Made by a program: the position numbers and the translations under genes. DNA of 30,917 nucleotides. It comes from an uncultured archaeon. Lineage in GTDB: Archaea > Asgardarchaeota > Thorarchaeia > Thorarchaeales > CAZPUN01. The stretch lies in assembly GCA_964589775.1 (NCBI GenBank), contig CAZPUN010000001.1, forward strand, positions 1 through 30,917. The letters are read 5' to 3'. Of this stretch, positions 2,714 through 25,452 are shown one piece after another. The notes under the pieces were generated by a model, which saw nothing but the letters and a program-made list of their open reading frames with translations, made no database searches and was not told the origin of the DNA. Numbering within the stretch: position 1 is the first letter of the stretch; each line of letters starts with the position of its first letter.

Positions 2714-2715
2714 TT

Positions 2716-3930: not shown

Positions 3931-3934
3931 ATTA

Positions 3935-7500: not shown

Positions 7501-10500
7501 TACATATGAAGGTTTCCAACTAAATGAGGTAACCTGCTCCGTAATATAAGTACTTTGAAATACGATAGCCCCTGTAGAATTTAGTATTTTCACCACAACA
7601 TATTCACCAATTAGGGCACCAGTAGTTTCGTTTTCCAAGGTAAATTTAACGATCAGTGTACTACCAAAAGACAGTTCGCTTACTGGATCTATTATTGTTA
7701 TTTGCACAATCTGAGTTATGTCTATTGTATCAATCAACTGGTTGTGTATCGTAAATCTATCATCTAAGGTTATGTTAAGGGTGTATGTTGCAGCGTAATT
7801 AACTCTAATATTAATCAACACAACTCCTGAAGCATTTGTAATACCAAATCCAGATACAATGTATCCGCTATGTTTGAGTGAGACAAGAATATGTCCCAAA
7901 TTGATTGGACCAGATGTTCCTCTTACAGTAGCGTTTATTGTGAATTGATGTCCTGCTGTCAAACTACCAAGAATTTCGTATGAAATTGACACTGATTCGA
8001 AAACGTCTAATTTTCCAAGATATTCTGAAGGAGCATAAGTACTATTTCCTGCATAAGAAATTCGAATCGTATATGCACCACGGTTTTCAGGCATCCATGA
8101 GAACTGTACAACGCCCTCAGAACTGTTTGCGAAAGTTACATGAATAACAGTATCGTTTAAAAGAACTTCAAATTTAATTCTACAGTTATTCAAAGACATA
8201 TTTCCAGCATCATAGATTCTCACGGAGAGTGATAGATTATTTCCTAGCACAAGTGTCTCATTATAATACGCTGCCAAGAAGGTCTGATGGCGAATATAGA
8301 CGAGCCGTGAAGAATTACTGGAATAGTGATATAAATCACCAGTATATGAGACATTTATCTGATAATCGCCAATGTTAGATGGGATCCAAGACAGCGATGC
8401 ATAATTTGTGCTATTTAAGTATAGAGTTTGAAATATTATTTGCGTGCCGTTAGAGTCGAAGATTCTTAAACTAATTGCCTGACCCGATAATGTACTAACA
8501 TCGGTTCCTGTAGCATGTACAAGAATTAACAGCTCAACGTTTGGATAACTAATATCTAAGGAGATTATATCAAGCTTGACATCACTAATCGTTCTAACAT
8601 TCGTGCTATTGTGCGATGAATATAATGTATGGTCTGAGGATCCAGAATATTCAACCGATATTTGAACATCAGTCGCTATGTCTAAATTCCAAATTAAAAT
8701 TGCAAATCCGCTTGCATTCGTTATTCGGAAGTATGTATGATAAGTAGTACCATAAGAAAGTGTAATTTTCAGAGATGCGTTAGCAATACCTGCATTGAAT
8801 TCATCATATAAATGAAAGAGGGTTGTAACATTCTCACCTGCGGATACTGAACCATCAGTTTGAATAGACACATAGCTCAGTTTGTATATTATAGACGTGG
8901 AAGAATTGCTACAACCAAGAACATGACCATTCCCGGCATATTCAAGTATGATCTCAAATTCGCCTGTGCAGTTTGGAGTCCATGTAAAGTTCGCCCAGCC
9001 ATTATTAGTCAATTTAGTATTCGTAAAGATGATTGTAGAACCACTTTTTACAGTCAGTGTGACATTATCATTATCTATTGCAGTACCATTTTCGTATGTC
9101 AGATAACCAGATATGTTCAATGGTTCGTTCACATGCCCAGTTGCATTTACGCTATTACTTAATTCTGTCAGAATAGGTTCAAAAATCGAAATATCAGAAT
9201 TATAGATATAATCCGTACAATCTTGATGCGAAATTGTCAGTTCAAACGTATAGTTACCAACCGATAAATCAAAATTGACCGAGAACTCAAATGGACTATT
9301 CACATGATAATATGTTCGCATGGTGTAATATGTTGAATTATACACTGCAATTTTTACTGTGGTATCATTAATAGGAGCTCCAGTAGTGAGATTAAACTCA
9401 ACATGACCTGTTATTGGATAGTCGTGAGGATATTCGTCAGAATCAAGAGAAACAACACCATCGATAGCTCCAGAAACATAAATATCATGAGTCACAGCAG
9501 CAGGAGTTTGAGAGCCATTAGACCATGCTTTAATCTTAATCATATTATCGCCCAGTGCAGATGAATTTGAAGGAATAGAAATTGTTATGGTACCATTTGG
9601 AGCAAAATCCGTTATTGTTCTATTTCCAAACGAATCAATTTGTAATGTGACTATTGATGGGACGGAATCACCAGAGATCGAATACATATCCAAGTCTAGG
9701 GAAATACTGCTTCCGAGCGATGTTGTACTAGGACCACTAACTGAAAGCCCAAACGCCATTGGCTGCTGCTTTGTGAACCAATCATTAAGGCGAGTATGCA
9801 GACGATAAATCATTTCAGTATATTGTGGAGTAAGTGTATTATTTTGATAATATAATCCACGATTATTGGTCTGAGACTCTATTAATGTTCTAACTATAGT
9901 GAAATTGACGTAATCGCTTAGAATAATGAATCCAGCATCTTGGAGCAAGCCTAGAGTCTCCACTGCATAATATGTCGAGCCAAGATCACTCCAATTAACC
10001 TTTGAAAGCACATAATTACGAATAGTATCCGCAAGTGTTTTGTTTAATAAATTTAGGTCACGATAAGCGAGAGTGCCAAAGTATGTCGGAGCTAGTTCGA
10101 ACATAGAATACGGATAGGTAAATTCCGTATCAAATTTAGCAGCATTAAAATTATTGAGCAAATAAGCTTCTAGCAATTGCCTATTTGCTATTTCATTTAA
10201 TTTACCCATGCTCCAGAGCAGGTCTGTAGCTGCCACAGTATATTGGAATCCGGTTATACTGCCAGTATCTCGGGATTGTCGAAATGCCCCTGCATTTTCT
10301 CCGTCCAAAATTTGCATGGATGTAATGGTTTCTACAAACTGATCTTGTTCAGCCTCAGACATGACTTTTTGGAATCCACCATATGCAATCACTGAATGTA
10401 CAGCAAACCATTCGACCCATATAGAGTCGAGGTCCAGATTTGTACTATAATATTCAATTGGATTTGGCAAGTAAGAATCAGGAACATGAACCACAAAGTA

Positions 10501-12390
10501 ATTACTATCACAAACAGATTCAATAAATGAACCCAAATTGGAAGATAGAATATTTCTATCATAATATTCCAGAATAGTATTAGCAAATGCTGAGGTCCAG
10601 AAGAGTGTATCAAGAGTGTTCGAAAACTTGTCGAATCCGACATTTTCTAAATATGTGCTCATTCCAAAATCGACTAAAGCATCATAATCAATTGTGGTGA
10701 TATTCGCTTGAAGACTAGGACGAATCAGATCCGCAAAGATTTTCGATGTCCCAATTTTGCTATACGCAATGCCTGGAATATTAAAACCGCCAGAAGATAA
10801 TTGCTGTTGTGATAGCCATGCAGATGAATTGCCATGTATTTCGGAAGGAACCCCACCGGTCAGTGCAAGAGCTCCTAACGCTGCTACAGTTCCTTTCACA
10901 AAACTTGGCGATTCAGTGATCGTTATTGGGCCAATTTGGTATGGGGGTACTGAATAGAAAGACCCATCGTTTACTGATGCATTGTTTAATATCCAGTTTC
11001 GTAATAACTGTATATCTAGTACATCTTTGCTATTTAGAATATCAAGTGAGTAAACGCATTCATAAGAGCTTACCGTAGATGATTCATCACTACCATAATA
11101 TGGTGCAATTCCACCTATCATTTCGGAAATACCATTTTCATCAGCAGTATGTTGCTGCCCTTTGAGAAATTCAATTGCTGCTGTAGTATTGATTAAATCA
11201 AGCTTGTTTGAAAGTTCAAGAGCACGCAAGGCAAGATAGGTTTCATGTACTCTATCAAGGGTTGAGCCGGGTCTTGCAACAAACCCGCCTCTATCCGTTT
11301 GCGAACTTGCGATTGTATGGGCAATAGATGTGACATTAAACTCAGAAATACCTAGTTCGCTAATTAGTATAAGTGCCATTGAGGTTGAGGTATAATCTGG
11401 CTCTTTAGTTTGGTCCGGTCTAAATAGCGTCTCAGAGTCGTTTTCATACATCCATGAGTCCAATAACTTTTTGACTGTATTGTTAATCTGGGATAATAGG
11501 TCAGACTTGTTTAGTGCATAAAGGCCATCGACGATCTCATAAGCGGCAAGTAATGTAGGTATGTGATTCCAACTCCAGCCACCAGTGTCATTTCCCTCGT
11601 GTTGTAATTGATAAATATACTCCAATTTATCTTGCTTATCAGATATTAAATACGCAATTTCATCAAACAAGGATTCCATTCCGATTTGAGACACCTTGGA
11701 GGGATTTTCAATTGCAGACCATATTGCCTCAATACCTTCTCGCTGAATATAAACCGCACCGGTATAATTCTCAGAGTTAAGTAGGGGTACTCCAAGCCGC
11801 AATGATTCATTATATTTAATCAAGGGAACTGGCACAGTATTTTGCAAGTTCACTTGTGAAAACGAATATGGAACACTAAAAACCTTTTCAGCAGCCTCAG
11901 TAACATTTAGAACAACATTTGTAAATTCGCCGAAATCATCTGAGGAGAAATGAACAAGATCATCTAAGAGAAGAAATGCATGTCCAGTCATTAAAAATGG
12001 AACTCGAGCATCTCTGAGTTCTCTCCACACAACTTTCGAATCTTCTGAGCCAGTGCTACCTGAAACAGATGCATCAATTATTATTAAATCATATTGAGAT
12101 AAATTCAAATCCAAGGAAGATACAGAAACACTACTGGTATGAAAACCAAAATCATTGCAGGCACTAAGCCAGTTATCAACTGCAGGCAATATATTTGTAG
12201 AGTTAGAAAACACAATTAGAATGTCAGGAATATCCTCTGATTCGCCTGTAAATTGCATTACTTTTTCAGTTGATATAGTGTTTATTTTTATTTGCCCATC
12301 GTTTTCAATAGGATAAGTTGCAGGTGTTCCGCCTATAGTTGATATGAACATGATCGCGAAAAGAAATAACAATACGAATTGCTTTCTCAT
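4591..12390 (-). CDS. Giant (2599 aa) membrane-anchored surface protein: signal peptide, prenyltransferase/squalene-oxidase-like alpha/alpha repeats, ~17 Ig-like repeats, C-terminal TM
   Basis: Signal peptide MRKQFVLLFLFAIMFISTIGG; QW-like repeats (QLQHEGNDTGGW, SSQTDRGGF, QQQLSSGGF, SMQILDGENAGAF) at about 11630-9780; beta-rich ~95-100 aa repeats ending Y-x-G...Y..S at about 9750-4750; TM FISFLMVGIILAVGFVG; many N-x-S/T sequons. Confidence 0.85.
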   Translation of the reverse strand: MRKQFVLLFLFAIMFISTIGGTPATYPIENDGQIKINTISTEKVMQFTGESEDIPDILIVFSNSTNILPAVDNWLSACNDFGFHTSSVSVSSLDLNLSQYDLIIIDASVSGSTGSEDSKVVWRELRDARVPFLMTGHAFLLLDDLVHFSSDDFGEFTNVVLNVTEAAEKVFSVPYSFSQVNLQNTVPVPLIKYNESLRLGVPLLNSENYTGAVYIQREGIEAIWSAIENPSKVSQIGMESLFDEIAYLISDKQDKLEYIYQLQHEGNDTGGWSWNHIPTLLAAYEIVDGLYALNKSDLLSQINNTVKKLLDSWMYENDSETLFRPDQTKEPDYTSTSMALILISELGISEFNVTSIAHTIASSQTDRGGFVARPGSTLDRVHETYLALRALELSNKLDLINTTAAIEFLKGQQHTADENGISEMIGGIAPYYGSDESSTVSSYECVYSLDILNSKDVLDIQLLRNWILNNASVNDGSFYSVPPYQIGPITITESPSFVKGTVAALGALALTGGVPSEIHGNSSAWLSQQQLSSGGFNIPGIAYSKIGTSKIFADLIRPSLQANITTIDYDALVDFGMSTYLENVGFDKFSNTLDTLFWTSAFANTILEYYDRNILSSNLGSFIESVCDSNYFVVHVPDSYLPNPIEYYSTNLDLDSIWVEWFAVHSVIAYGGFQKVMSEAEQDQFVETITSMQILDGENAGAFRQSRDTGSITGFQYTVAATDLLWSMGKLNEIANRQLLEAYLLNNFNAAKFDTEFTYPYSMFELAPTYFGTLAYRDLNLLNKTLADTIRNYVLSKVNWSDLGSTYYAVETLGLLQDAGFIILSDYVNFTIVRTLIESQTNNRGLYYQNNTLTPQYTEMIYRLHTRLNDWFTKQQPMAFGLSVSGPSTTSLGSSISLDLDMYSISGDSVPSIVTLQIDSFGNRTITDFAPNGTITISIPSNSSALGDNMIKIKAWSNGSQTPAAVTHDIYVSGAIDGVVSLDSDEYPHDYPITGHVEFNLTTGAPINDTTVKIAVYNSTYYTMRTYYHVNSPFEFSVNFDLSVGNYTFELTISHQDCTDYIYNSDISIFEPILTELSNSVNATGHVNEPLNISGYLTYENGTAIDNDNVTLTVKSGSTIIFTNTKLTNNGWANFTWTPNCTGEFEIILEYAGNGHVLGCSNSSTSIIYKLSYVSIQTDGSVSAGENVTTLFHLYDEFNAGIANASLKITLSYGTTYHTYFRITNASGFAILIWNLDIATDVQISVEYSGSSDHTLYSSHNSTNVRTISDVKLDIISLDISYPNVELLILVHATGTDVSTLSGQAISLRIFDSNGTQIIFQTLYLNSTNYASLSWIPSNIGDYQINVSYTGDLYHYSSNSSRLVYIRHQTFLAAYYNETLVLGNNLSLSVRIYDAGNMSLNNCRIKFEVLLNDTVIHVTFANSSEGVVQFSWMPENRGAYTIRISYAGNSTYAPSEYLGKLDVFESVSISYEILGSLTAGHQFTINATVRGTSGPINLGHILVSLKHSGYIVSGFGITNASGVVLINIRVNYAATYTLNITLDDRFTIHNQLIDTIDITQIVQITIIDPVSELSFGSTLIVKFTLENETTGALIGEYVVVKILNSTGAIVFQSTYITEQVTSFSWKPSYVDLYTVELYYAGKKYFSSTTSLMTVAVKGDAHIEVHFSTPVLVGHLQEIRVVLIDNSNGTLIYANITVEIYRNNSKIYSLILPSNDTFLYTFNEKGIYEIHAMYNGSILYASTETVVNLEADIKAIISITLDSPVYLTNDIYIQGVLKDENGNTITGVNISFDLLSPAYLPLQHKTNITYVNGTVAIYFTPTMIGLLKVRAYITPGQFYIGEDAIQDVVVKTKTAWDLKLQDSVPLLLDSVNFTVFLYDALNQSLDSISAYIGIYDPAGNEIYGSVWTSWSKFTTNTTGVLFSFIPQSVGKYIVKLKVYSGDYWDANQSEFAFDVYSCVFITLNIPERVPVNETFLISGIARDAAGNGLGGLLLSGRIFDEHNTKIFQWTMITSTDGTFSKAVNLTELETYLVSIRFYGYLLYLPTSENKSIDAVLGTHISVQLPENQIYAGDNVSILIRLEDTNGASLEGFMIKFSMVLNDTQIMSISTAISNGSYKELYILFEHSGNYSVSVEFPGTTHYLESSLNFSIIVYSSAYLNIGVNSTIYLENTTIPITLVDDYNNPISNATITYRLVGNISVDSEVQTDDFGKAYILLPITEVGNYVLTLNYSGAVKIRGVYVSLNLTVLSHVHVRLNLVHIKVLDYCTVFLFLHDDLNRTLNDFTIALSLYNPKGREIYGSAFSTITILSVPAGGLNITWFASLAGRYQLVVRYDGSTFYPAIDNSSEILVLYRSYWTGKTILNSTQGQNLALTYHLYREDNSTISNADVNVLIYRNSQIYSQINATTDFSGILILNVEITSWGNYTIILEYSGNSEIFASAFRTQIYSVISPELEVKLPEDAILVGIETNITIHLLYNERYVDGVFNVTIKVMRGGQTVLVNKGLIFGMHGYTFVWIPEEIGEYNILVQVSGNEYVSGVQETYTLYVRGSNTAQSLITVNGDFISFLMVGIILAVGFVGERAFYNRDLLKYPWSREDSK

Positions 12391-12977: not shown

Positions 12978-14489
12978 TTAGTGCCCACCCTCCTTTACAG
13001 TGGTCTCTTCATCCTTTCCAATAATTTCTTCAATTACTGAATCTATGTCGGTAATGGGAAGGTCTGTATCGCTTTCAAAGTCATCAATAGAATCCGTTAT
13101 GGGCATTTCAACCTCCTTGACTGGCTTCGATATGGGCTCCGATGGTTCTTCAGATGGTGCGTCCTCTTTTTCCACAGCTTCCGGGAGTTCCAACTCGGCT
13201 ACTTTAAGTTCGCCAGTTTCCTCTTTTGCAAGTGGTGAATCATCTTCTTCCTCGGATTTTATCTTTCGAGTCAAGTCTTCTACTAAGGATTCTAGAGCCG
13301 GTTTATTTACAACGTCAAAAATCTTATTTTTCATGGTCTCATCAATCAGTCCGAGCCACATCAACATTCGAGCAATTATGACATATGGAGAAATGACTTC
13401 GAATGGGAATAGTTTGGATATTTCTGCCTGTCTGAGTGTATTTACTGCACGTATAAACTCAGTTTCATAAGATTCATCAAGTCCCATGCCAGCAGAGGTG
13501 AAAATGTTCAGAATACCATCGATAATTGGATCTTCATCACCTTTTATTTCAGGGTTCAATTCTCTTGCAATGGTTTCGAGAACTTCGAGAATTATTAATG
13601 CACTGGGATTATACTTTTTCTTATCAAATAGCTCTATGGCTTCATTTACCTTATCTGAGACATATTTCGTGAGTTTTTCATATTTTATATCGATTTCAGT
13701 GCGTTCCGTTTCTGATGGGGGAGTTACAACCTTGTGTATTACCGCGGGAACATATTGAATTTGCTCATACAATTCGTTCTGAAAGATAGAGAATAGACGT
13801 ACAGATTCCACCAGCATAAGCATGGAAGCGATGATTCCAGCCATGCCGATCATTATTCCAGAACTTAAACTCGGTATGATCGTACTAAGCATAGTCATTA
13901 TACCGAAGCCGGGCAGTGTGAACATAGAGTAATGACCTAATTTTCGCGATTTTCGCCATACAGCCCATTTTTTCTTAAAATTAAGCGATTTTGTATCAAT
14001 ACTAGAATCTCTTCGTATAAACTCGTCCAGATTTGTATGCAGCACGCTAATTTCCTTGATCTCATCAGGAATATCTACGACAATTCGTTCGTCCATTATA
14101 ACGATCAATGGCGTTACAGTCCACGCCAATTCACTAGTACCATAGAGCGATAATTGAGTCGATATCCAGAAATGATTCATTCGTACATGTGAGACTCCGT
14201 CAACTAACGCAGCTCGTTCCTGAGGAGGTATCGACTTGAACTCATTGATTTGTTGTAGAACTTCACTATAAACTTCCATCAATTCCGTCTTCGAAGACAC
14301 AATACCGATAATGATTACTTTAGCAATAAATCCGGAACTGTCCCTTGTGGGTGATATTCGCCATAGATAATAGCAATTCTCTTTTTCAGTCTCATGAACA
14401 TTAAATCCATCTCTAATTAGCCCCTCAAATAGAGACATATAGTCTATTGTTCCGATTTCCGGAACCCTTTCAATTTCTACACTATGCAT
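12978..14489 (-). CDS. Hypothetical two-TM protein with a HEPN-like helical domain and acidic disordered tail
   Basis: 503 aa, central pair of hydrophobic helices, EAIELFDKKKYNPSALIILEVLE helix, E/D/P-rich C-terminal ~90 aa; SD GGAGGTGA. Confidence 0.65.
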   Translation of the reverse strand: MHSVEIERVPEIGTIDYMSLFEGLIRDGFNVHETEKENCYYLWRISPTRDSSGFIAKVIIIGIVSSKTELMEVYSEVLQQINEFKSIPPQERAALVDGVSHVRMNHFWISTQLSLYGTSELAWTVTPLIVIMDERIVVDIPDEIKEISVLHTNLDEFIRRDSSIDTKSLNFKKKWAVWRKSRKLGHYSMFTLPGFGIMTMLSTIIPSLSSGIMIGMAGIIASMLMLVESVRLFSIFQNELYEQIQYVPAVIHKVVTPPSETERTEIDIKYEKLTKYVSDKVNEAIELFDKKKYNPSALIILEVLETIARELNPEIKGDEDPIIDGILNIFTSAGMGLDESYETEFIRAVNTLRQAEISKLFPFEVISPYVIIARMLMWLGLIDETMKNKIFDVVNKPALESLVEDLTRKIKSEEEDDSPLAKEETGELKVAELELPEAVEKEDAPSEEPSEPISKPVKEVEMPITDSIDDFESDTDLPITDIDSVIEEIIGKDEETTVKEGGH

Positions 14490-16677
14490 CTTTCTTCACC
14501 TCCTCAGTGATAGAAAATTCAGCTGCATCATGGAATGGAGCCAAAATGGTTTCAATTTCTGTTGCAGCTCTACCAATATCGACATAACCTTCAGAAGATG
14601 CTATTTGCGAAATGCAATGAATTAACCATCTCGCCGTGGAGAATAGCGTCATGAAATCGCCGGTGTAATTCTCAAATCTTTCAGAAATATCCCAGAACGA
14701 CTTACGTTCGATTACGATTTGGTTCAAGGCTGAGGAAAATTCTTCGGGTAACTCTCTCAGTGATTCTGTAGAAATCGCCATTTCAAGAACATGTAATATA
14801 TCTGCTATATTTTCAATGCTAAACAAAGACGCACGAATATTCTGAGCTGTTTCTATCTTCAAATACAACTGTACGATGCGCCGCCCAATTTCTGTTGGCA
14901 TATAGCGATTCTCTTTTTGAACAATAAGTTTGCTTCGAATTAATGTATCGATCACACTAAACTTTCCAAGTGCAAGAGGAATAATCCCATTACCATGTCC
15001 GGGAGAATCTGCCATAATTTTAAGACCAAGCGCTATTAGATGGACGCATAGTTTCTTACGACCACTTCTAAAAGCACTGCACGAGCATTTTGGACCTGAA
15101 ATATCTGAATAACTACAGGTGTACGTAGAACCCGCATAATCAATCAAGCCATCTATTGTTCTATCAGTTACCCGTCTTAATTGGACATAGGAAATTAGTT
15201 CTTCGGCTTCGGAAATATCGTCAGGTGCAGCAATCATTTCAATTGCCGTAATAGCATCAATATGCCCAAGACGAATAGATTTAATTCCAAGTTCGCTGCT
15301 ATGCTGATAGCTCCAGAAACTTGAATTTATGAACTCTTCAATCTGTTCTAGAGTAGGGTCATTTAGTTCGTAAATTGTAACAAGTGTTTGTTCCAAGAGG
15401 CTCGAGTAATTTCCAAAGGCGGATATAATTGGTTCATATTTCGGTACAAGTTCAGATCCTGACGGTATGAAATAGCGTTGCAAAACTTCATTTTGCTCAT
15501 CGGGATTTCCAGCAAGTATGATACCATAGCCAATATCATCGAATCCGGGTCGCCCGGCACGACCGAGAATCTGATGTACAGTATTAGCGTCCATATAATT
15601 TGTTTCTACTTCATTACTTTCATCTGTAGAGAACATTTTAACGTCTCTCAAAATCACAGTGCGAGCTGGCGTGTTAATACCTGCACTTAACGATGTTGTA
15701 CAGCATATAACAAATATCAAACCATCTCTGAATAGATCTTCCACAATCTTTCGCGAAGACCACGATAATCCTGCATGATGAATACCGACACCATTAATGA
15801 GCAAATTCTCTAATTTTGCAGATATCCGAATACCTTGTGCGCGTATTTGTGTCAGGCGTTGGCGAATAGCTTCCTTTTCCTTTCGTGATAGATGTTTGCC
15901 AACGTATTCAGCAAGTTCGGTACCTTCACTTTCAACACTTCTACGAGTGCTTGTAAAAACCATCACTTGACCGCCACTATGAATTGTGCTCATAGTGATT
16001 TTCAGAACTGCTTCACGCTTATTCTCAACAAGAGATACAAACGGCTTTAATGGGACAGGCCGTTCTGTAGATTCTACAAGATTACAACCTAACCAATCCG
16101 CAAGTTCAACCGGGTTTGCTATTGTAGCTGTAAGTCCAACTATTTGAGCGTCCGGAATAATCCTCTTGAATCGCATGATGGCTCCTTCAATTCGAGGCCC
16201 ACGAATGGGGTCACCCATCATCTGAATTTCATCAATTACGACCGTTTGAATATCCAAAATCCAACTTACTTTTGAGCGTAATATCGAATCGAATTTTTCG
16301 TAGGTTGTTACAATTATATCGGCTGCAGCAAGCATACCGGGATCATGGTCAAAATCTCCACTGGAGACTGCTACAGTATAACCTAATGCCTTGAACTTTT
16401 CTGATAATGCATGAAACTTCTCAGCTGCAAGTGCCCTTAGTGGAACGAGATACAAGGCTTTCTTGCCCAAGCGTGCAGAAGATAGCAGGGCCAATTCGCC
16501 AATCAATGTTTTTCCAGACCCGCTGGGGCTCGATACAAGTATGCTTTCGCCATCTAATAGACCTTTTAAAATTGCTTCCTGCTGTATTTTCCTTAGACGG
16601 ATTCCCCACTGCTCTAATAGGTCATTCACCCAATCTGGGAGTGGTACTTCTGGTTCTTTTGCTGCTTGAACGCTCAT
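14482..16677 (-). CDS. Ski2/Hel308-like SF2 helicase with internal SWIM zinc finger
   Basis: Q motif LRKIQ, SPSGSGKT, LVPLRALAAEK, TTYEKFD, DEIQ, LTAT, HHAGL, TTSLSAGINTPA, QILGRAGRPGFD; winged-helix PTEIGR; CSC-x10-CVH SWIM signature. Confidence 0.9.
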   Translation of the reverse strand: MSVQAAKEPEVPLPDWVNDLLEQWGIRLRKIQQEAILKGLLDGESILVSSPSGSGKTLIGELALLSSARLGKKALYLVPLRALAAEKFHALSEKFKALGYTVAVSSGDFDHDPGMLAAADIIVTTYEKFDSILRSKVSWILDIQTVVIDEIQMMGDPIRGPRIEGAIMRFKRIIPDAQIVGLTATIANPVELADWLGCNLVESTERPVPLKPFVSLVENKREAVLKITMSTIHSGGQVMVFTSTRRSVESEGTELAEYVGKHLSRKEKEAIRQRLTQIRAQGIRISAKLENLLINGVGIHHAGLSWSSRKIVEDLFRDGLIFVICCTTSLSAGINTPARTVILRDVKMFSTDESNEVETNYMDANTVHQILGRAGRPGFDDIGYGIILAGNPDEQNEVLQRYFIPSGSELVPKYEPIISAFGNYSSLLEQTLVTIYELNDPTLEQIEEFINSSFWSYQHSSELGIKSIRLGHIDAITAIEMIAAPDDISEAEELISYVQLRRVTDRTIDGLIDYAGSTYTCSYSDISGPKCSCSAFRSGRKKLCVHLIALGLKIMADSPGHGNGIIPLALGKFSVIDTLIRSKLIVQKENRYMPTEIGRRIVQLYLKIETAQNIRASLFSIENIADILHVLEMAISTESLRELPEEFSSALNQIVIERKSFWDISERFENYTGDFMTLFSTARWLIHCISQIASSEGYVDIGRAATEIETILAPFHDAAEFSITEEVKKDA

Positions 16678-19010
16678 TTTAGTTCCACCTCACCATGCCC
16701 ATCTTCAAACATTTCAAGATTCATTCGACCACGCTCAGTGATTGTATAAGACGCTACTTTGAATCCACCATAGCCTTCGCTAACTTGGGTTAGATATCCA
16801 TGTTCTGCAAGCCCTTTTACAATACGAACTATTTCATCGCGTTCGGCTTTCTTTGATAATGCACTAACAATCCCTTCCTGACTCAAGACTTCATAATTCG
16901 TCAGTAGCTTCAAGATCATTGCAGCCAGTAATGCTTTACCACCAAAGTCCTTCTCGAGGGTTGTAGAGGCAGGTCTAAAGATTCGCATACTTAATTCGGG
17001 ACGCAAATCGCCCAATCGTGCTTTTATTTCAGACTCTGAGACATCTTCGAGTTTGCTTTCAAACTTGTAATTAATTTTGATAGGAAATCCAGTGGAAACT
17101 CCCTCTACAATATATAGAGCCTCGCCATAATCTAATGTACGCAAGTAGGTTGTTTCGCGACTACCATATCGATTCTTGCTATATAGTCCATGAGATAGGG
17201 CAGAAAGACCCATGCGATCTGCAACTGTAGAAACATCTGAGCTCGACGTCACTCTATGCGAGATTGAAATTGCCAAATTGTTATACATAGAATATGGCAG
17301 GTCAGTGGGAGAGTCCGTCGAAAGTAATATGCCAATTTTTTTCTTTGACAATCCTTTTTGGAGCCCTTTCCAGATATTATCCTCATATTCTGAAATGAGC
17401 CCGCGTGCAGGCATACTAAACATTAGTGCAGCAGATGAGAAACCCAGAGCGGATATATCGCCGTTATATGCCAAAAGCTTGGTTGCGATTAGAGAACTTG
17501 CCATGAAACGTAGCGTAGGAGATTGTAGATTATATTCAATTATTACAGGACCATGGGAGATCAAATCAGATATGGAACAATTTTGCACACCGTAGAAAGA
17601 TTCTGCGCCCTCACCTATTTTCAAAGACATAACGAACCTGTATAATTCCTCTGAAGCACGGTCCATTCCAGTCGAAACAGATTCATATTTATCGAGAAGA
17701 TCTTCAATCGTTGAACTTCCATCCGAAAGAACATCCATTAAAGCCATATCAAATTCGGGAGTGGGAACTCCAGCTTTATACGCTGCAGTTGTTAGAATAC
17801 TTCGCAAAAGGCTCCCATAGAGATTAGAGGGCAATCCTTCCGGGTCTACAGGATTTAATATGAAATCTCTGCCCAATCTCAAAATAACTAAATTATCAAT
17901 TAAACGGAGCAATTTTCTATAATTCGAGTCTCCAGTTATGAATATGAAATTAATACCTCGCTCAGAAAGACCCTTAAGCACTCTAAAAGTTGTTTTCATT
18001 CGCTCATCATGAATTCCACCTACGATTGCTATGCCCTTTGGCACCATATCTCTTTTGAATCCTGCATCCTCAACTTCATTTTGGGTTTCCGTATCGATTA
18101 TACGACCAATCTTAATATCGTACTGTAATCCTGTGGGAAGAATAAATTCACCCGGGACTCGAAATTGTACCTTGCCGAGTAATACCGGCTTAATATCGAA
18201 AATAGCCCGGGTGATCTCGGCTCCAGTAGCGACAAAAGTAGGGGGTTGCGAGAGGAGGGAGGAAGAATATAGGTTCTGGAGGTTCATCTCACGTAATTTT
18301 GCACCCGGGATGCTGGCCCGTACAGAATTTCGAATTACGTGCAATGAGGCCTCCAATTTGATTTCGTCTGGAGCCGAGATGATCATCGTAATTGAGACAT
18401 TCCAGAATCCGGCCATTTTACCAATTGTTGCCTGCTGCAATCCAGAACTCATTTCAGACCAATTTTCAGATACAAACTCAGTTAGATTTGAGGATTTTAG
18501 CACATCATCAAAATCTACCGGACACAATGAGAGCGAATATTGGAAATTGATATCAGAATTTACAAGTGACTCTAACAGAGTTTCCATTCGGCCAAATAGG
18601 CTCAAAGGCACTTCTTTTATTATTAGCCCTGCAACAAATTCATCTCCAATTTTCGCAAAATTTTCTGTTCGACTAAATGAATTGGAAATTGGTGCATAAT
18701 CTGAATTACTTATCTGATACGAATGAATAAAGTAGCTAGCAGCCTCCATACTTGTAGTTAATACAATACCAAGTAAGAAAGCACCTAGCAGCTCTAATGA
18801 CATGTTTATTCCGATTATTACACCAAAGCTCCACATTATACTCATCATTCCTAACTTTTTAACGTACGTGCCTCCGATTGGACTACGTCGCTCCCATATT
18901 GTGATGTACGCGGTGTCCGACTCTTGTTCTATTTTAGGACGCTTGGACATTCGTTCAATAGGATCAACTTCGGGACGTGGTCCAAAGTACGTTCTCGCCT
19001 TTTTTGCCAT
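16674..19010 (-). CDS. Membrane-anchored HerA/VirB4/CedB-like FtsK-HerA superfamily protein with degenerate ATPase motifs and C-terminal winged helix
   Basis: Two N-terminal TMs; IKIGRII...KGIAIVGGIHDERMKT at the Walker A position; FIFITGDSNY, LNPVDP, KKKIGILLSTDSPTDLP, NNLAISISHRV parallel HerA/VirB4 motifs; LAEHGYL...YTITERG wHTH. Start moved to ATG 19010 (MAKKAR), after a GGAGGAG SD. Confidence 0.65.
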   Translation of the reverse strand: MAKKARTYFGPRPEVDPIERMSKRPKIEQESDTAYITIWERRSPIGGTYVKKLGMMSIMWSFGVIIGINMSLELLGAFLLGIVLTTSMEAASYFIHSYQISNSDYAPISNSFSRTENFAKIGDEFVAGLIIKEVPLSLFGRMETLLESLVNSDINFQYSLSLCPVDFDDVLKSSNLTEFVSENWSEMSSGLQQATIGKMAGFWNVSITMIISAPDEIKLEASLHVIRNSVRASIPGAKLREMNLQNLYSSSLLSQPPTFVATGAEITRAIFDIKPVLLGKVQFRVPGEFILPTGLQYDIKIGRIIDTETQNEVEDAGFKRDMVPKGIAIVGGIHDERMKTTFRVLKGLSERGINFIFITGDSNYRKLLRLIDNLVILRLGRDFILNPVDPEGLPSNLYGSLLRSILTTAAYKAGVPTPEFDMALMDVLSDGSSTIEDLLDKYESVSTGMDRASEELYRFVMSLKIGEGAESFYGVQNCSISDLISHGPVIIEYNLQSPTLRFMASSLIATKLLAYNGDISALGFSSAALMFSMPARGLISEYEDNIWKGLQKGLSKKKIGILLSTDSPTDLPYSMYNNLAISISHRVTSSSDVSTVADRMGLSALSHGLYSKNRYGSRETTYLRTLDYGEALYIVEGVSTGFPIKINYKFESKLEDVSESEIKARLGDLRPELSMRIFRPASTTLEKDFGGKALLAAMILKLLTNYEVLSQEGIVSALSKKAERDEIVRIVKGLAEHGYLTQVSEGYGGFKVASYTITERGRMNLEMFEDGHGEVELK

Positions 19011-19011
19011 A

Positions 19012-19368
19012 TCATCTCCTCCCCAGACGTATCGCTTCAGCATCATCTCTTAATGATTTATACACATCTTCAATCATGTTTGGCTCAAGAGAAGTTGCGA
19101 TGGTATCTGGGGAAATCCTAATTATTGAACCATCTTCTGAACTCAGTACAAGCTTAAACTCATGAAGCATATCGGGACGCTCCAGACCATAACTGGATAG
19201 AGTATGCATGATCTCTTCGTCACGCAATATTGCAGGGATTTTTATCAGGTGAACACGCACCTTAGGTCTTATAGGCGTCTGTTCCGTATGTTCTCTCTCA
19301 CCCCATAGGAATAGACTTAGTGTGAATATCCCAATTAATAATATACTACCTATTACAACCCAATTCAT
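19012..19368 (-). CDS. Small single-pass membrane protein
   Basis: N-terminal TM MNWVVIGSILLIGIFTLSLFLWG; ATGA overlap with the upstream gene, 1-nt gap to the downstream gene. Confidence 0.7.
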   Translation of the reverse strand: MNWVVIGSILLIGIFTLSLFLWGEREHTEQTPIRPKVRVHLIKIPAILRDEEIMHTLSSYGLERPDMLHEFKLVLSSEDGSIIRISPDTIATSLEPNMIEDVYKSLRDDAEAIRLGRR

Positions 19369-19790
19369 TCAGATTCCCCCGTTACTCTCGCAACTAATTT
19401 TTTCAGATCCTCAGAAGTCAGATCTACAAGTTTCACATGATGAAGTACTGATTTTAATACGCTACCGGCTATCGCCTTGAATTCGACTACCTTTTGAAGT
19501 ACCTGTTCTTCATTTCTTTTGAAAAACACTCCTTGTTTTTGCTGTGCTTCTACTAAAAAGTAAATGGCGATGGAATTCCTTGTCTGTCCAGGCTCCTTTG
19601 CATCCTTTAACAGAATATGAAATCTAATTTTATAGGAATACAATACTGAAAGTGCTCTAGCAAGTGAAACTTCAATACCAACTGGAATTAAACCGATACG
19701 AAAGCCTGTTATCGCTTTAAACATGCCGTCTTTTATCAGAATCAGCACACCGTCTTCATGAACCTTGTAATAGATTTGACTTGCTAACAC
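19365..19790 (-). CDS. Hypothetical protein (141 aa)
   Basis: GTG start overlaps the helicase TAG stop; its own stop overlaps the next ATG. Confidence 0.7.
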   Translation of the reverse strand: MLASQIYYKVHEDGVLILIKDGMFKAITGFRIGLIPVGIEVSLARALSVLYSYKIRFHILLKDAKEPGQTRNSIAIYFLVEAQQKQGVFFKRNEEQVLQKVVEFKAIAGSVLKSVLHHVKLVDLTSEDLKKLVARVTGESE

Positions 19791-21724
19791 TATGGTCTCC
19801 TCCTGAAAAAGTATTTCAACGCATCAACGAGCTCTTGAGCACTTTCGTAAGCCCAAATTTCTTGTTTCCAAGTCTTTGGCAGAAATTCACGATAGGTCTT
19901 TAATCGCTTATCGAGTACTATAACAACACCTCGATCTTTTTCAGAGCGAATGAGACGCCCGCTAACTTGGAACAACTTCTTAAGGGCTGGCACAAATATT
20001 GCATATGCAAACCCATTATGGAATCGAGCATCATAGAATTCTTTCAACTTCTCATTTATTTCATCAAGAAGTGGAAATGGAATACCAGCAATGATAATTG
20101 AACTAATAGCACTTTCACCATTTATTCTGAATTCAACACCTTCGGTCCATTTTCCACCCGCAACTGCAGACACAATTACAGGCTTACCACGAGCAAGTTC
20201 CGCCTTCAAGTCTTCTAACTTTGCACCCCGCTTCTCACTTAATATTCTACGATGGACCTTCTTAACCAAATATCGCTCGATATTATCTTTGATTTTGTAA
20301 CTCGGATATGACACAAGGACAGACTTGTTTCTCGGTAAATTTCGAACTATTAATGCGATGCGTTCGGCATAAGACTCCCATAGAGATTCAGTTCGCATGT
20401 TATAATTCATAGACAATTCAGGATCTACAAGCAACAGCCGATTTCGTGAAGAATATGGACTTGGAAAACTCATCTTAACTGCCATCGGAACGCCAAGAAC
20501 GTCTGAATAGTAGTTCAAGGGATCAAAGGTTCCAGACATTAACAAAGCGGAATCTACCGAGGTTAATAATGGTGAGATATACTCAGCGGAATCAAGACCC
20601 ATTAATGTAAGCTTAGGAATTCGTTCTCGTTTACGATACCACTGAACAACAATTATGTGTGATGAATCAACGTGTGAGAGTACACTCAGATAAAATTGGC
20701 TGACTTCAACAAGCTTACTAACAACAAAAGAACCTTCCTCAAACTTCTTGCGCTCGAATGAGCTTCCAGATTCTATTAGTTTCCGTAAACTCTCCTCCTT
20801 TATGAACCGAGGTATGATTTCCCACAATTCAACTTGGACTTTATCGTCTTCGGTTTTGCCACGAAGCTTGCGTTCGCCAGTCTCTTGTAGAAATTGATAT
20901 AGGGCCACTAAATCTGTCATATCAATACCAAGGCTCTTGCCTTCTTCAATTGCCTGTTCAATATCTTTAAGTGTAATAGAAGTTGAATTCAAATTCCGTA
21001 CAACTTCGGGAAGATTGTGAGCCTCATCAATTATAAGAGAAATGTTTCCAATATCAATGTCTAGTCCTTTTATGAAATAATTTTGAATCTTGTGATCCAA
21101 TAAATAGTTATAGGAGGCGATAATTACTCTCGCACCCTTTGCCATAAATTGGGTGATATCATAAGGACACAATCTCTGTTCTACAGAACGTGCATAAACC
21201 TCAGAAGGCGAAAATTCTTGATCGTTTAGCATAATTTCAATTACATCTTTGGCTACTTGTGACGGTTCGCCATTTTTAACAGACGTATTATGGTACGGAC
21301 AATGTCCACTTGAGGAAATTAGCAAACACTTTTTCAGAAACTCGGCATAACTAATTTTTTCTTTCTTAGGTTCGAGTAGAGGGCACATCTCTTGCTTGGA
21401 CAATAAAATAGCAACTGGAATATTAACTCCCGAAGACCGCATAATCGCTTTTATTTCCTTCTCAAATATCAGTGCCTGAGATTTTGTACGTGTTAACACG
21501 ACAAGTACATTATCTCGACCATGTAATCCCTTTGCAAGAAAATATCCAACAAGCGCACTAATAGTCTTACCCGTACCACATGGAGCATTTAAAAATCCAA
21601 TCCGCTTAGATTCGAAGATCTTCTGAACATATTCAATAATTTCCTTTTGATATGCTCTCGGACGATACTCATGCGGAAAGACTGAATCAAATGATACAGA
21701 AGGCAATACTGCAGTATCTGACAA
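19790..21724 (-). CDS. XPD/Rad3/DinG-family Fe-S cluster 5'-3' DNA helicase
   Basis: PRAYQ, APCGTGKT, four Fe-S-position Cys (MCP, KKC, HCPY, LCPY), IIDEAHNL, MSGT, GKWTEGVEF, GIPFP, QVSGRLIRSEKDRG. Confidence 0.9.
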   Translation of the reverse strand: MSDTAVLPSVSFDSVFPHEYRPRAYQKEIIEYVQKIFESKRIGFLNAPCGTGKTISALVGYFLAKGLHGRDNVLVVLTRTKSQALIFEKEIKAIMRSSGVNIPVAILLSKQEMCPLLEPKKEKISYAEFLKKCLLISSSGHCPYHNTSVKNGEPSQVAKDVIEIMLNDQEFSPSEVYARSVEQRLCPYDITQFMAKGARVIIASYNYLLDHKIQNYFIKGLDIDIGNISLIIDEAHNLPEVVRNLNSTSITLKDIEQAIEEGKSLGIDMTDLVALYQFLQETGERKLRGKTEDDKVQVELWEIIPRFIKEESLRKLIESGSSFERKKFEEGSFVVSKLVEVSQFYLSVLSHVDSSHIIVVQWYRKRERIPKLTLMGLDSAEYISPLLTSVDSALLMSGTFDPLNYYSDVLGVPMAVKMSFPSPYSSRNRLLLVDPELSMNYNMRTESLWESYAERIALIVRNLPRNKSVLVSYPSYKIKDNIERYLVKKVHRRILSEKRGAKLEDLKAELARGKPVIVSAVAGGKWTEGVEFRINGESAISSIIIAGIPFPLLDEINEKLKEFYDARFHNGFAYAIFVPALKKLFQVSGRLIRSEKDRGVVIVLDKRLKTYREFLPKTWKQEIWAYESAQELVDALKYFFRRRP

Positions 21725-21725
21725 T

Positions 21726-22346
21726 CTACTTCCTCCTCTTTATATCTTCAAATAATTTGAGATGCTTCCAGTTGTCTCGAGAAATCAATGGGCCATCATC
21801 TGTCAATTGCTCAATTTTGACTGTAAAGTAACTATCAACCATATCGAGAAACTGACGAACCACCATTCCGGCACGAATCGAATTCTGATTCATTTCATAC
21901 ACAGAACGGTCTACTAATTCCGGAGAATAACAAAATCGACGAGCATAATTCCAAAAGCCGGTCTCAATTGCTGCTGCACGTTTATAATAAGTCTTAGCCA
22001 TTTCATGCGCAAGATCAATCAATTCCTTCGCAACGAAATTTTCAGGCTTTTTTGCCTTGAAATGCATATAAAATGCGGCTCCGCTCCATGATTCCTTGGG
22101 AGTCACTGTTCCTTTTAATTCACGAGTGGCTTGAATCTTTGCAAGGAGTTCCGGAAGCTTAGCATGTGGCGTATGTTCTCCTGGGTTCCATTCTACCACA
22201 ATTACAACTCTTAAAACATCATCGTCAAGAGTCAGAAAGTATGGAATTGCATTTCGTTCGAAATATCCATTAGCCATTGATACTGCAGTTTCGGGATTTA
22301 TTGCTTGAACTTTCTCCGGTGCCCTGAATAGGGATAGTATGGTCAT
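21726..22346 (-). CDS. Hypothetical protein (206 aa)
   Basis: Coupled ORF (ATGA overlap, GGAGG SD); no recognisable motif. Confidence 0.7.
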   Translation of the reverse strand: MTILSLFRAPEKVQAINPETAVSMANGYFERNAIPYFLTLDDDVLRVVIVVEWNPGEHTPHAKLPELLAKIQATRELKGTVTPKESWSGAAFYMHFKAKKPENFVAKELIDLAHEMAKTYYKRAAAIETGFWNYARRFCYSPELVDRSVYEMNQNSIRAGMVVRQFLDMVDSYFTVKIEQLTDDGPLISRDNWKHLKLFEDIKRRK

Positions 22347-22744: not shown

Positions 22745-23794
22745 CTAAGCAGCCTCCTTATCTTTCTTCGCGGCTTTGATCTCTGCCTCCAGAGCCTTTT
22801 GAGCCTCGAGTTCCTTTCTTTGTGTAGAATTCATCAAGCCGTGTTCTGTGATATAGTACTTCACTTCAAATTCCGGAAGACCTGCAGCATCTTTCAATCG
22901 GAAAATCCTCTCTCCCGGGTGCTTGCCAGTGTTTCCGAGACCCAAGTAAATTCGATACGTAGATGCATGAGCAACTATATGACCGCCCACAGGAGCATTG
23001 TCATAGCCACCCACAACCGAAATCTTCGCCATGACTTGATTTGTAATGACAACCAGCATATCTGTAGCAATAGACATCTGAAGTAAGTTTCTAAGAGCAT
23101 GATTCATAGCTGCTTGACGAGTTCTTAATTGGTCCAGAGTTGAAAACTCGCTACGGAAAAGTCCAGTAAAGCTATCTATCACAAGTAACTTCACATTATT
23201 TCGTTGAGCAAGGTCTGACACACGCTCTAATAAATCGAGCATGTGCTTCGAATTCAAAACCATTGCGTATGTAATATTGCCCACTGCAGTATCTGGCTCA
23301 ATTCCAAATCTCTCAGCAATCCTTCGAATGATCTGAGGCTTGTAGGTACGCTCGGTATCCAGCCAGATAACGCGGCCGTCTAGACCCCCCTTCTCCTTTG
23401 GTAATTGGACCGTGACAGCAAGTTGACTGCACCAGTTGGTCTTTCCTGAACGCGCGGGACCATAAAATTCAACAATCGACTTTGTTTCGAATCCTTTGCC
23501 GCCTAAAGCTTCGTCTATGGTCGGAATACCTGTCGTTAGATATCCCAATCGCTTGGTTAAGAACTCTTCAGCCTCAAATCCAGACATGAAATCATAACCA
23601 ATCAGTGCCCTCGCCTGCTTTACTATGTTTTCTGCAATTGTAACTCCAATACCCACCTTGTCTGCAAGTTCAGTAGGATTTTGAACTGCAAGAATCTCCG
23701 CAGATGTGATCCACTTAGATGCCAACTTAGCTGCCAGAGCTGGACCTACACCCTTCACACGCTTTAATTCCGTAACTTGAACACTATTTTCCAT
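22745..23794 (-). CDS. radA: RadA/Rad51-family recombinase (full-length, divergent paralog)
   Basis: N-terminal HhH (VKGVGPALAAKL), Walker A GPARSGKT, VQLPKEKGGLDG, DTERT, LLVIDS, FRSEF, TNQVMA, GGHIVAHASTYRIYL. Start moved to ATG 23794 (TAATG overlap, GGAGGTG SD). Confidence 0.85.
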   Translation of the reverse strand: MENSVQVTELKRVKGVGPALAAKLASKWITSAEILAVQNPTELADKVGIGVTIAENIVKQARALIGYDFMSGFEAEEFLTKRLGYLTTGIPTIDEALGGKGFETKSIVEFYGPARSGKTNWCSQLAVTVQLPKEKGGLDGRVIWLDTERTYKPQIIRRIAERFGIEPDTAVGNITYAMVLNSKHMLDLLERVSDLAQRNNVKLLVIDSFTGLFRSEFSTLDQLRTRQAAMNHALRNLLQMSIATDMLVVITNQVMAKISVVGGYDNAPVGGHIVAHASTYRIYLGLGNTGKHPGERIFRLKDAAGLPEFEVKYYITEHGLMNSTQRKELEAQKALEAEIKAAKKDKEAA

Positions 23795-24435
23795 TATACG
23801 CACCTCCCAACAATATTCATTCGCTTAATCAAAAAGTCAAGCAAGGCTGTTGAGTCGGCATAGAGATAACTCGTTCTGAAATATGATAGATACCTTAGCC
23901 CCGCTTTCGTAATCTGCAAGTAGCTATCGTGCATGGATAACATTCCTGAATTAACAAGCTGAAACATATAATCCTCAAGACCGAATTTCGAAACATTCTC
24001 GAGTGTATGTAAAATGCGATAAATAAGAAATAATACATTAGCACTACGAGGTATAACGCCGCTCACGGGAATGTAATTCAAATCGGATATACTTTCCATA
24101 ATGCGATTCATAATCTTATTATACAGCTGAAGTGGGATTAGCCCTGCATTAATCAATCTCAGGAACTGATGCTCACCAATTATCGAAATACCGCCTGAAA
24201 CACCATTCTTGATTAAGATCCCGTATGATAAGAATACATCTTTATTGATCAGTTCCGAAGCTTCAATAGTATTACAATGTAGTCTGAGAATGTTCCCTTT
24301 TAGAGTCCCTCGAGTTTCTATTAGATAAATCAAATTACTCTTGATGGATTCATGCTCGAGAGCTCCGGAAAACATTTCCATCTCATTTCTTGCTTCAGAC
24401 ATATTCGCATATTCTCCCATGAGCAGTTCCATCAT
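23794..24435 (-). CDS. Hypothetical protein with C-terminal winged-helix motif
   Basis: LVNSGML...LQITKAGLRYL wHTH-like pattern. Start moved to ATG 24435, after a GGAGGT SD. Confidence 0.6.
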   Translation of the reverse strand: MMELLMGEYANMSEARNEMEMFSGALEHESIKSNLIYLIETRGTLKGNILRLHCNTIEASELINKDVFLSYGILIKNGVSGGISIIGEHQFLRLINAGLIPLQLYNKIMNRIMESISDLNYIPVSGVIPRSANVLFLIYRILHTLENVSKFGLEDYMFQLVNSGMLSMHDSYLQITKAGLRYLSYFRTSYLYADSTALLDFLIKRMNIVGRCV

Positions 24436-24439
24436 CAGA

Positions 24440-25372
24440 TTACCTCCTAATGTGCTGTTTGATGCGGTCAATCCATGCACGAGTTATATTCAATTGAACT
24501 TCAATCTGAGATAGAATGTCTTCAAGCATTTCATCAATAGAGTCATAATTGCGGTCCGATAGAACTAAACCAGTATCTTTTAGAAATTCCAGGGACATCG
24601 TAATTGCTTGTTTTCTCAATTCATCTCGGTCGTATGGCTCACAGAATCTGCATAGACCAGAGCTCATTAGTGGAATTTCATTGGATACACAACTAAGACA
24701 AGCCCAGATCTCCTCTGAATTCACAGGCGAAACCTCAAATTGACTAAAATTGTGGTCCTCTGTGAGACGATCTTCGATATATTCAAGAATGCCTTCATAT
24801 ACTTCAGAGAGAAGATTGATCAATCTAGCAAAATCAAGCATGACCTGGGAAAATGGTTTTCCAGTCGGATCCGGACCTACAATTACAAATGAGAAAATAT
24901 GCCCATTAGGAAGATATCTAATTCCTGCCGGTAATATCTCATAATATCGCTTTAGGTTCTCTTGGGTAGCATAAATCAGTGCTGTAGAAATTAGGAGTTC
25001 AATTGGTGAAATTCCACTCTTATCTATGATTTTCTTATCGCTGAACATAGGATTTAGAACCGTGATGTCCATCGAGAAGATAAATTCAACAATAAGACTA
25101 GGCTTTAATGAAATTACATTCACATTCATTACTTTGTACGGCGCGAAATTATTCATCTTAATTAGCCATTTGAGTGTATCTCGTACGGGAATTTCGAAAT
25201 CGTCATCCCATGAATTATCGTAAAATATATTGGAAACTAAATTCTCAAAGAAATACAAATCTGAAAGATCAATTTGCTTATCGTCAGTGCCAAGATTCCT
25301 AAGTAGCCAATCGTATATGTCCACTCTTACATATTTATTCTTATTAATCGTAGATTTATTTAGTTCAGTCAT
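24440..25372 (-). CDS. Hypothetical protein with C-terminal CxxC...CxxC zinc finger; first gene of the coupled block
   Basis: CLSC...CRFC. Start moved to ATG 25372 (MTELNK), 8 nt after GGAGG. Confidence 0.65.
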   Translation of the reverse strand: MTELNKSTINKNKYVRVDIYDWLLRNLGTDDKQIDLSDLYFFENLVSNIFYDNSWDDDFEIPVRDTLKWLIKMNNFAPYKVMNVNVISLKPSLIVEFIFSMDITVLNPMFSDKKIIDKSGISPIELLISTALIYATQENLKRYYEILPAGIRYLPNGHIFSFVIVGPDPTGKPFSQVMLDFARLINLLSEVYEGILEYIEDRLTEDHNFSQFEVSPVNSEEIWACLSCVSNEIPLMSSGLCRFCEPYDRDELRKQAITMSLEFLKDTGLVLSDRNYDSIDEMLEDILSQIEVQLNITRAWIDRIKQHIRR

Positions 25373-25452
25373 CTTATTTTCCTCCAACGCTCCTCCTATG
25401 TCTCTCGCCAAACATGTCTATTGTTGGATTGTGAAACTCGCCATTCTCGCCT

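Follow-up and report, generated by a model that had tools for sequence, protein, structure and literature searches.

Why should an archaeon that already carries a canonical radA keep a second full-length RadA with rebuilt DNA-binding loops, and what might this protein do? The question is raised by a gene, here called RadA2, in a 30,917-nt stretch of DNA (the window, i.e. the whole stretch that was analysed) from the genome of a Thorarchaeota member of the Asgard archaea, of 2.16 Mb and 96.75% completeness. A sequence-only reading had described its product as a specialised second recombinase, which is supported by a canonical radA elsewhere in the genome, by orthologues across the order, by purifying selection and by an operon and a clade of its own. 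RadA2 is a real, conserved and operon-specific RadA variant, and is somewhat more probably than otherwise a recombinase dedicated to an inherited Asgard operon, in which a second set of DNA-processing enzymes accompanies membrane proteins.

A RadA paralog beside the canonical gene

The RadA2 reading frame extends on the minus strand from 23803, or from the ATG at 23794, to 22745. The ATG at 23794 is the likely start, giving a protein of 349 aa; it overlaps the upstream stop by 1 nt, a Shine-Dalgarno-like GGAGGTG lies close on its 5' side, and a sister protein (P0001, 96% identity) is likewise called at 349 aa. A sigma-70 promoter scan of the region, using a model ill-suited to archaea, gave only chance-level scores. 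Pfam matches to HhH (1e-9) and Rad51 (1.7e-62) reveal the full-length RadA/Rad51 layout of an N-terminal HhH domain followed by a RecA-type ATPase core. The protein passes the cut-off of the NCBIfam RadA model PRK04301 (282.6 bits against 259), misses that of TIGR02236 (259.5 bits against 361), and scores 283 bits on RadA versus 89 on RadB, while the Dmc1 model TIGR02238 gives 209.7 bits against a cut-off of 447.7. The closest solved structures are P. furiosus RadA and Sulfolobus-type RadA, and a structure model (pLDDT 83) has filament chains of RadA, RAD51 and Dmc1 as its top fold matches. RadB, aRadC and the RAD51 paralogs share with RadA2 the status of RecA-core paralogs of RadA, but RadA2 has both the N-terminal HhH domain and the polymerisation motif, which sets it apart from RadB and aRadC.

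The sequence-only reading had proposed a search for a canonical radA elsewhere in the genome. Such a gene is present at full length on a separate contig (C64), so that RadA2 is not the sole RadA of its host. The C64 protein carries the FxxA, GR and PD motifs and shares 73-80% identity with canonical RadA elsewhere in the order and 42% with RadA2, whose own nearest relatives, from Candidatus Thorarchaeota, are 45-52% identical to it. The host belongs to the same order as the 40 relatives searched, but to another family; a profile search detected RadA2 orthologues in 40 of the 49 Thorarchaeia genomes of that other family. The dN/dS values of five unsaturated orthologue pairs range from 0.015 to 0.10, and mean identity is 66% among RadA2 orthologues versus 83% among the canonical copies. 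Thus, RadA2 is a paralog beside canonical RadA and under purifying selection, and its family evolves faster than the canonical gene, yet is constrained. Five MAGs without RadA2 (completeness 85-92%) also lack the Hel308 and XPD genes of the operon described below, for which a missing contig is as good an explanation as true loss.

The long branch of RadA2 and its identity of only 42% to the canonical copy could point to a decaying duplicate or an assembly artefact. This reading has next to no probability and was rejected, since the frame is intact, the active-site residues are invariant, dN/dS is well below 1, and the 96%-identical sister has neighbours identical in kind. Because the sister comes from independent samples and assemblies and shows both the same insertion and the same neighbour genes, a sequencing artefact is excluded.

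Further copies of the RadA2 paralog occur in some Thorarchaeia (L031:2463-3575 in G020; L124, L128 (G012); G015; G030). G020 carries a tandem copy directly upstream of RadA2 that is strongly degenerate, with broken L1 and L2, and G015 has up to 10 matches to the paralog. On long contigs of four well-assembled Thorarchaeia genomes (G014, G009, G028 and G019), the operon and canonical radA share one strand, with radA 60-80 kb farther upstream.

The RadA2 operon and its membrane proteins

RadA2 is part of a run of co-oriented genes extending from 25372 to 1134, with gaps of -41 to +4 nt:

23794..25411, minus strand: pair of ORFs of about 206-228 and 310-323 aa that match no Pfam family and are coupled to RadA2
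22745..23794, minus strand: RadA2, full-length RadA paralog, 349 aa, with HhH domain, FxxG, intact ATPase core, altered L1/L2 and C-terminal helix
22343..22744, minus strand: zinc-ribbon protein of 133 aa with four cysteines, its gene abutting the RadA2 stop
21726..22346, minus strand: conserved 206-aa protein of no known family
19790..21724, minus strand: second XPD/Rad3-type helicase; other XPD-type copies on contigs C13 and C46
19012..19790, minus strand: pair of small proteins (141 and 118 aa) containing hydrophobic segments; the VirB4-like gene follows immediately
16674..19046, minus strand: VirB4-fold membrane protein, 790 aa, without Walker A lysine
14482..16677, minus strand: helicase of Hel308 type that weakly matches the SWIM zinc finger, a second copy; others on contigs C12 and C25
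12387..14489, minus strand: 503-aa membrane-linked protein and 196-aa polytopic membrane protein
4591..12390, minus strand: 2599-aa surface protein with prenyltransferase-like barrel and Ig-like repeats
2042..4615, minus strand: 404-aa membrane protein between two short RadB-like proteins of RecA-core type
1134..2051, minus strand: second FEN1/XPG-family nuclease; another copy on contig C35

All 13 relatives compared share the gene order between RadA2 and FEN1 (13/13, one contig ending early), except that the surface protein and a small partner lie just after FEN1 in relatives; the 2599-aa surface protein is thus near the operon there too. RadA2 and the VirB4-like gene go together: among the 49 Thorarchaeia, 38 have both, eight have neither and three have only one (agreement 46/49). 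Homologues of the zinc-ribbon protein occur in Thor, Jord/Freya and Hermod-type loci. Atlas searches with this protein and the adjacent 206-aa protein gave no explaining match, and a profile comparison found no link between the two upstream ORFs and the two ORFs at the equal position in relatives.

The model of the 790-aa protein matches TrwK/VirB4 of the R388 type IV system best in Foldseek (E 1e-12, about 640 columns, N-terminal region included) and then HerA, at a pTM of only 0.48. The Walker A motif GxxxxGK[ST] is absent from this protein and from every true homologue aligned, including those of other Asgard families. Eight other HerA-type matches in the host genome could in principle be a power source for the dead VirB4-like motor. 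Chromosomal VirB4-type proteins near recombination genes, accompanied by small and polytopic membrane proteins, are also found in the Ced (Sulfolobales) and Ted (Thermoproteales) systems, and Ted loci pair DNA-import genes with recombination genes (PMC9905601). The operon shares with these systems a VirB4/CedB-type protein, but lacks the Walker A lysine and hence an intact ATPase site, and differs further in having its own RadA, RadB-like, XPD, Hel308 and FEN1 paralogs. It includes membrane proteins whose size would suit a CedA/VirB6 channel and a CedA1/VirB2 pilin, but which have no Pfam match. The 30,917-nt window yielded no relaxase, no integrase and no recognisable pilin.

The start of the operon adjoins a GH3 acyl-amino-acid ligase gene (window 25453-26994, minus strand), which is co-oriented here and adjoins the operon start on the opposite strand in most Thorarchaeia; GH3 genes also lie near the locus in the Hermod-type genome G078 and in G044. 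A 499-aa protein encoded upstream of GH3 (27562-29061, minus strand), and likewise present in the sister genome, weakly matches a winged helix and is a possible regulator. The VirB4-like gene is split in L140, L143, L144 and L155 (Jord/Freya and others) into an N-terminal membrane part of about 280 aa and an ATPase-fold part of about 510 aa, and reaches 1270-1420 aa in families f9 and f16. Two genes upstream of the 1275-aa VirB4-like gene of f9, a protein of 600-730 aa (L150:4326-6506, L153:14308-16125, L154:4915-6726) shows a weak RecA-core match and predicted membrane segments and is possibly a membrane-anchored RecA-fold protein.

ATP site, filament interface and DNA-binding loops

Residues were compared in 97 de-duplicated but related Thorarchaeia RadA2 orthologues and are given in human RAD51 numbering, anchored on yeast Rad51 and on published equivalences (R293 = R235, V331 = V273, D332 = D274; bioRxiv 10.1101/2025.02.19.639135). 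K133, T134, E163, D222, S223, R229, R241, Q242, N267, G288, G289, H294, R299, R310 and D316 are invariant (97/97), and the polymerisation phenylalanine F86 has its equivalent in 96/97. By reference to established RAD51 structure, this set comprises the residues of the ATP site, the His-Asp cap over the ATP of the neighbouring subunit, the polymerisation Phe and the ssDNA phosphate contacts. As these residues are invariant or nearly so, RadA2 retains its cis ATP site, its trans cap and the polymerisation Phe. In the window protein, the catalytic set typical of RadA/Rad51 is formed by K121, T122, E151, D210, H279 and D305. The primary ssDNA contacts of RadA/Rad51 (R229, R241, Q242 and G288-G289) are invariant; phosphate contacts of this kind are listed for Dmc1 (PMC8682777). 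The interface is conserved on both faces, as expected of a filament former, and RadA2 would bind ATP between adjacent subunits and polymerise on ssDNA via its primary site.

The polymerisation motif F72..G75 conforms to FxxA/G, with Gly as fourth residue in 93/97 orthologues. The sequence-only reading had regarded this FMSG as an altered motif and as a hint of a separate filament. It is not unusual, since the crystallised Methanococcus RadA chains 1T4G and 3ETL carry FKSG; FxxG is therefore no defect, and an altered polymerisation motif was rejected as a feature of the family. A filament of its own remains plausible on account of the two conserved interface faces, not of FMSG. Canonical archaeal RadA (1PZN from P. 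furiosus, 2BKE of Sulfolobus type, 1T4G/3ETL from Methanococcus) and RadA2 thus have domain layout, fold, ATP site, trans cap (His, Asp) and primary ssDNA contacts in common, and RadA2 has FxxG as in Methanococcus. The P-loop GPARSGKT had also been singled out. Here, the replacement of EF by PA is indeed unusual (F129 has become Ala in 92/97), but the arginine (R118, equivalent to human R130 and kept in 85/97) is not, the host's canonical RadA having it as well.

In its two DNA-binding loops, RadA2 departs from the canonical sequences (GR in L1, Pro-Asp in L2), and that reading had rightly noted both loops as unusual. The L1 arginine R235 is absent from all 97 orthologues, with Leu or Ile in its place in 95, and in L2 the V273/Pro position is Ile in 85/97 and the D274 position Ser or Gly in 88/97 (Ser 75, Gly 13); the window protein has L223 in L1 and I261 and S262 in L2. 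Both partners of the L1-L2 salt bridge (R235-D274) are consequently missing, while the length of L2 and its aromatic residue (Tyr in 74/86) are kept. A YARAYNSD-type strand at R193-F195 is rebuilt family-wide, and 32 positions are fixed differently between RadA2 and canonical RadA. RadA2 is further distinguished from canonical RadA by being a second copy, by an extra C-terminal helix and by its fixed place in a membrane-linked operon.

The insertion LGNTGKHPGER is real, with 14 instead of 10 residues between the R299 and R310 equivalents, but was rejected as a family feature; it is found in 0/97 other Thorarchaeia orthologues and so marks the lineage of the host. Its place is the hairpin that makes up the secondary DNA site in RAD51, where R303, K304, R306 and K313 capture the displaced strand (PMC12360782). 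Basic residues in this hairpin number one in the host RadA2, four in canonical RadA, three to four (usually three) in most orthologues and two in Jord-type copies, and the K313 equivalent is lost in most RadA2 orthologues.

R235 of RAD51 serves to partition the heteroduplex and to guide the complementary strand; an R235A variant shows diminished strand exchange (PMC12783270). E. coli RecA has Gly-Asp in place of Gly-Arg, in a gapped part of the alignment where the match is less sure, which suggests that a strand-exchange enzyme can do without the L1 arginine; in L2, where the alignment is ungapped, RecA has Lys-Ile-Gly and RadA2 Lys-Ile-Ser. RecA separates base triplets by the hydrophobic residues M164 and I199, which presumably correspond to L238 and V273 of RAD51, and the L238-matching position is Met in 40/97 RadA2 orthologues. 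The loss of R235 would fit either RecA-like pairing or a loss of pairing.

Within RadA2, a subgroup (L033, L034, L035, L048) has the P-loop Lys-Ala and no L1 arginine, and three of its four members have Pro-Gly in L2.

Ancestry and possible role of RadA2

RadA duplications in Asgard archaea have been published, with a second clade in Heimdall-, Njord-, Gerd- and Lokiarchaea (Matsuo et al. 2025, PMC12722695), and Asgard recombinases have been sorted into 18 groups (bioRxiv 10.1101/2025.02.19.639135). These share with RadA2 the duplication of a full-length RadA and the high diversity of loops; unlike in the present case, Thorarchaeota, operons and gene neighbourhoods are not mentioned in the main text of PMC12722695. 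A literature search, mostly outside subscription journals, retrieved no paper describing the RadA2 operon or loops.

Outside Thorarchaeia, the VirB4-like gene was detected in 45/151 Asgard genomes, some with weak E-values. Five Asgard groups have a full-length RadA beside it, or in a block with Hel308, RadB-like, FEN1 and zinc-ribbon homologues: Freyarchaeum deiterrae and its kin, a second family, with a canonical RadA sister to that of the first group, a third, named partly Hermodarchaeia and probably to be counted there, f10, and the large family f9, inferred to be Loki-type. Trees were calculated without eukaryotic and RadB sequences and without very divergent, partial or redundant ones (the L031 second copy, L179, L180, L195 and others). 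In these, RadA2 is set apart from the canonical RadA clade of its lineage, and so is not the canonical orthologue; it forms one clade (98/99) with the operon RadAs of the two Jord/Freya families and of the Hermod-type family, which have the P-loop Gly-Pro-Ala-Arg/Lys in common with it. This clade consists of long branches, and its SH-aLRT is only 87 in a smaller second tree. Forcing RadA2 together with the canonical RadA of Thorarchaeia cost 36 likelihood units (p-AU 0.049, borderline), whereas forcing all operon-linked RadAs together, including f9 and f10, gained 11 units over the free quick search (p-AU 0.77). A duplication confined to Thorarchaeia is therefore disfavoured, though at the borderline, and the trees are better read as showing an old operon-specific RadA lineage, subject to the caveat of long-branch attraction. 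R235 is kept by the operon RadAs of the Jord/Freya and Hermod-type groups, indicating that the ancestral operon RadA had a standard L1 and that, in this clade, the arginine was lost specifically in Thorarchaeia.

Genomes of families f5, f14 and f21 (L160-L180) carry four to six full-length RadA-like genes each, in several distinct clades, and the VirB4-like gene was found in only 2/43 genomes of this type.

The sequence-only reading had also suggested that RadA2 tolerates mismatched DNA like Dmc1, with the Rad51/Dmc1 difference lying mainly in L1. The key residues have instead been placed in L2: Dmc1 tolerates mismatches through the R235/R236 arginine freed from the L2 aspartate, and tolerance depends on this arginine (PMC8682777). 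A role like that of Dmc1, with selection for stabilising heteroduplex that contains mismatches to foreign DNA, would agree with the loss of the D274 equivalent, as D274 substitutions raise the mismatch tolerance of RAD51 (PMC8682777), and with the Dmc1-type Pro-Gly pair of one Thorarchaeia subgroup. Eukaryotic Dmc1 is, moreover, likewise a second full-length recombinase beside a housekeeping one and lacks the L2 aspartate. However, Dmc1 combines Pro-Gly with a retained L1 arginine, whereas RadA2 has lost the arginine throughout and mostly has Ile-Ser, so that the family is no copy of Dmc1. PG/PA loops are also common in ordinary archaeal RadA (15-16%; bioRxiv 10.1101/2025.02.19.639135), and Dmc1 has a separate origin in published trees, in which Rad51 and Dmc1 branch with no sampled Asgard RadA (PMC12722695). 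A Dmc1-like role for RadA2 is thus improbable.

RadA2 most likely acts, with a confidence just beyond even, as the operon's own ATP-dependent ssDNA filament and recombinase, supplied with ssDNA by the operon helicases, as their context suggests, and with FEN1 finishing the joint. Filament loading or capping would fall to the two RadB-like proteins and the SWIM-bearing helicase, in a manner analogous to the Shu complex of eukaryotes. RadA2 would then pair the strand with the chromosome via its rebuilt, more hydrophobic loops, dispensing with the R235-D274 bridge, and the FEN1 paralog would trim the remaining flap. Counting against this reading are the loss of R235 across the family, given the diminished exchange of R235A (PMC12783270), the eroded secondary site (one basic residue in the host copy versus four in canonical RadA, K313 mostly lost in orthologues), the missing Walker A lysine of the VirB4-like protein, the failure to recognise a pilin or channel homologue and the long branches of which the operon clade is built.

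In the main rival reading, RadA2 would be a non-catalytic accessory filament, either a protective coat on ssDNA or the nucleus of a mixed filament, leaving strand exchange to canonical RadA, much as full-length RAD51 paralogs do or as Rad51 serves Dmc1 in meiosis. The pattern of invariant primary ssDNA and ATP residues next to eroded donor-duplex residues, including hairpin positions that capture the displaced strand in RAD51 (PMC12360782), would suit such a role, as would the faster evolution of RadA2. Yet R130 is kept in 85/97 orthologues, most of which have three to four hairpin basics; L2 keeps its length and aromatic residue, and the R235 position is held as Leu/Ile without drift. The operon, in addition, already has two short RadB-like candidates for this task, and an accessory role is rather unlikely. 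A working recombinase might also serve inducible repair or genome maintenance on the cell's own chromosomes at the membrane, differing from the preferred reading only in the source of the DNA. That all operon enzymes are paralogs of repair genes, that no true VirB4-like homologue checked has the Walker A lysine, and that the window is devoid of relaxase, integrase and recognisable pilin argue for such a function without intercellular transfer. It would leave the VirB4-type fold, the 2599-aa surface protein and several membrane proteins unexplained, and Ted loci likewise join DNA import and recombination genes (PMC9905601); this alternative is unlikely.

For the preferred reading of a dedicated operon recombinase, the origin of the ssDNA in another cell, via a VirB4-scaffolded membrane complex as in Ced/Ted, is speculative and somewhat doubtful. 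More tentative still is the wider proposal that several Asgard classes inherited a chromosomal DNA-exchange programme, in which the RadA2 lineage and an ATP-dead VirB4 scaffold would recombine DNA of other cells, with loops of RecA-like hydrophobic character in Thorarchaeia. A well-conserved second RadA within a membrane-linked operon common to several Asgard lineages points to a recombination pathway of its own, which might serve DNA passed from cell to cell. DNA exchange and recombination in Asgard archaea are relevant to how meiotic sex arose, and earlier publications have considered RadA trees without gene context. The two RadAs of one genome, the housekeeping copy and that of the membrane operon, differ at the very L1/L2 residues that set RAD51/Dmc1 fidelity, which makes RadA2 a purifiable target and a natural test of RadA/Rad51-type strand exchange without the R235-equivalent arginine. 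RadA proteins without an L1 arginine (Gly-Ile-Asp) also occur in two other Asgard families (L197 in G077, L198 in G059), where they are the best RadA matches of their genomes and one has a Hel308-type gene next to it; should they be the housekeeping copies, the L1 arginine is dispensable.
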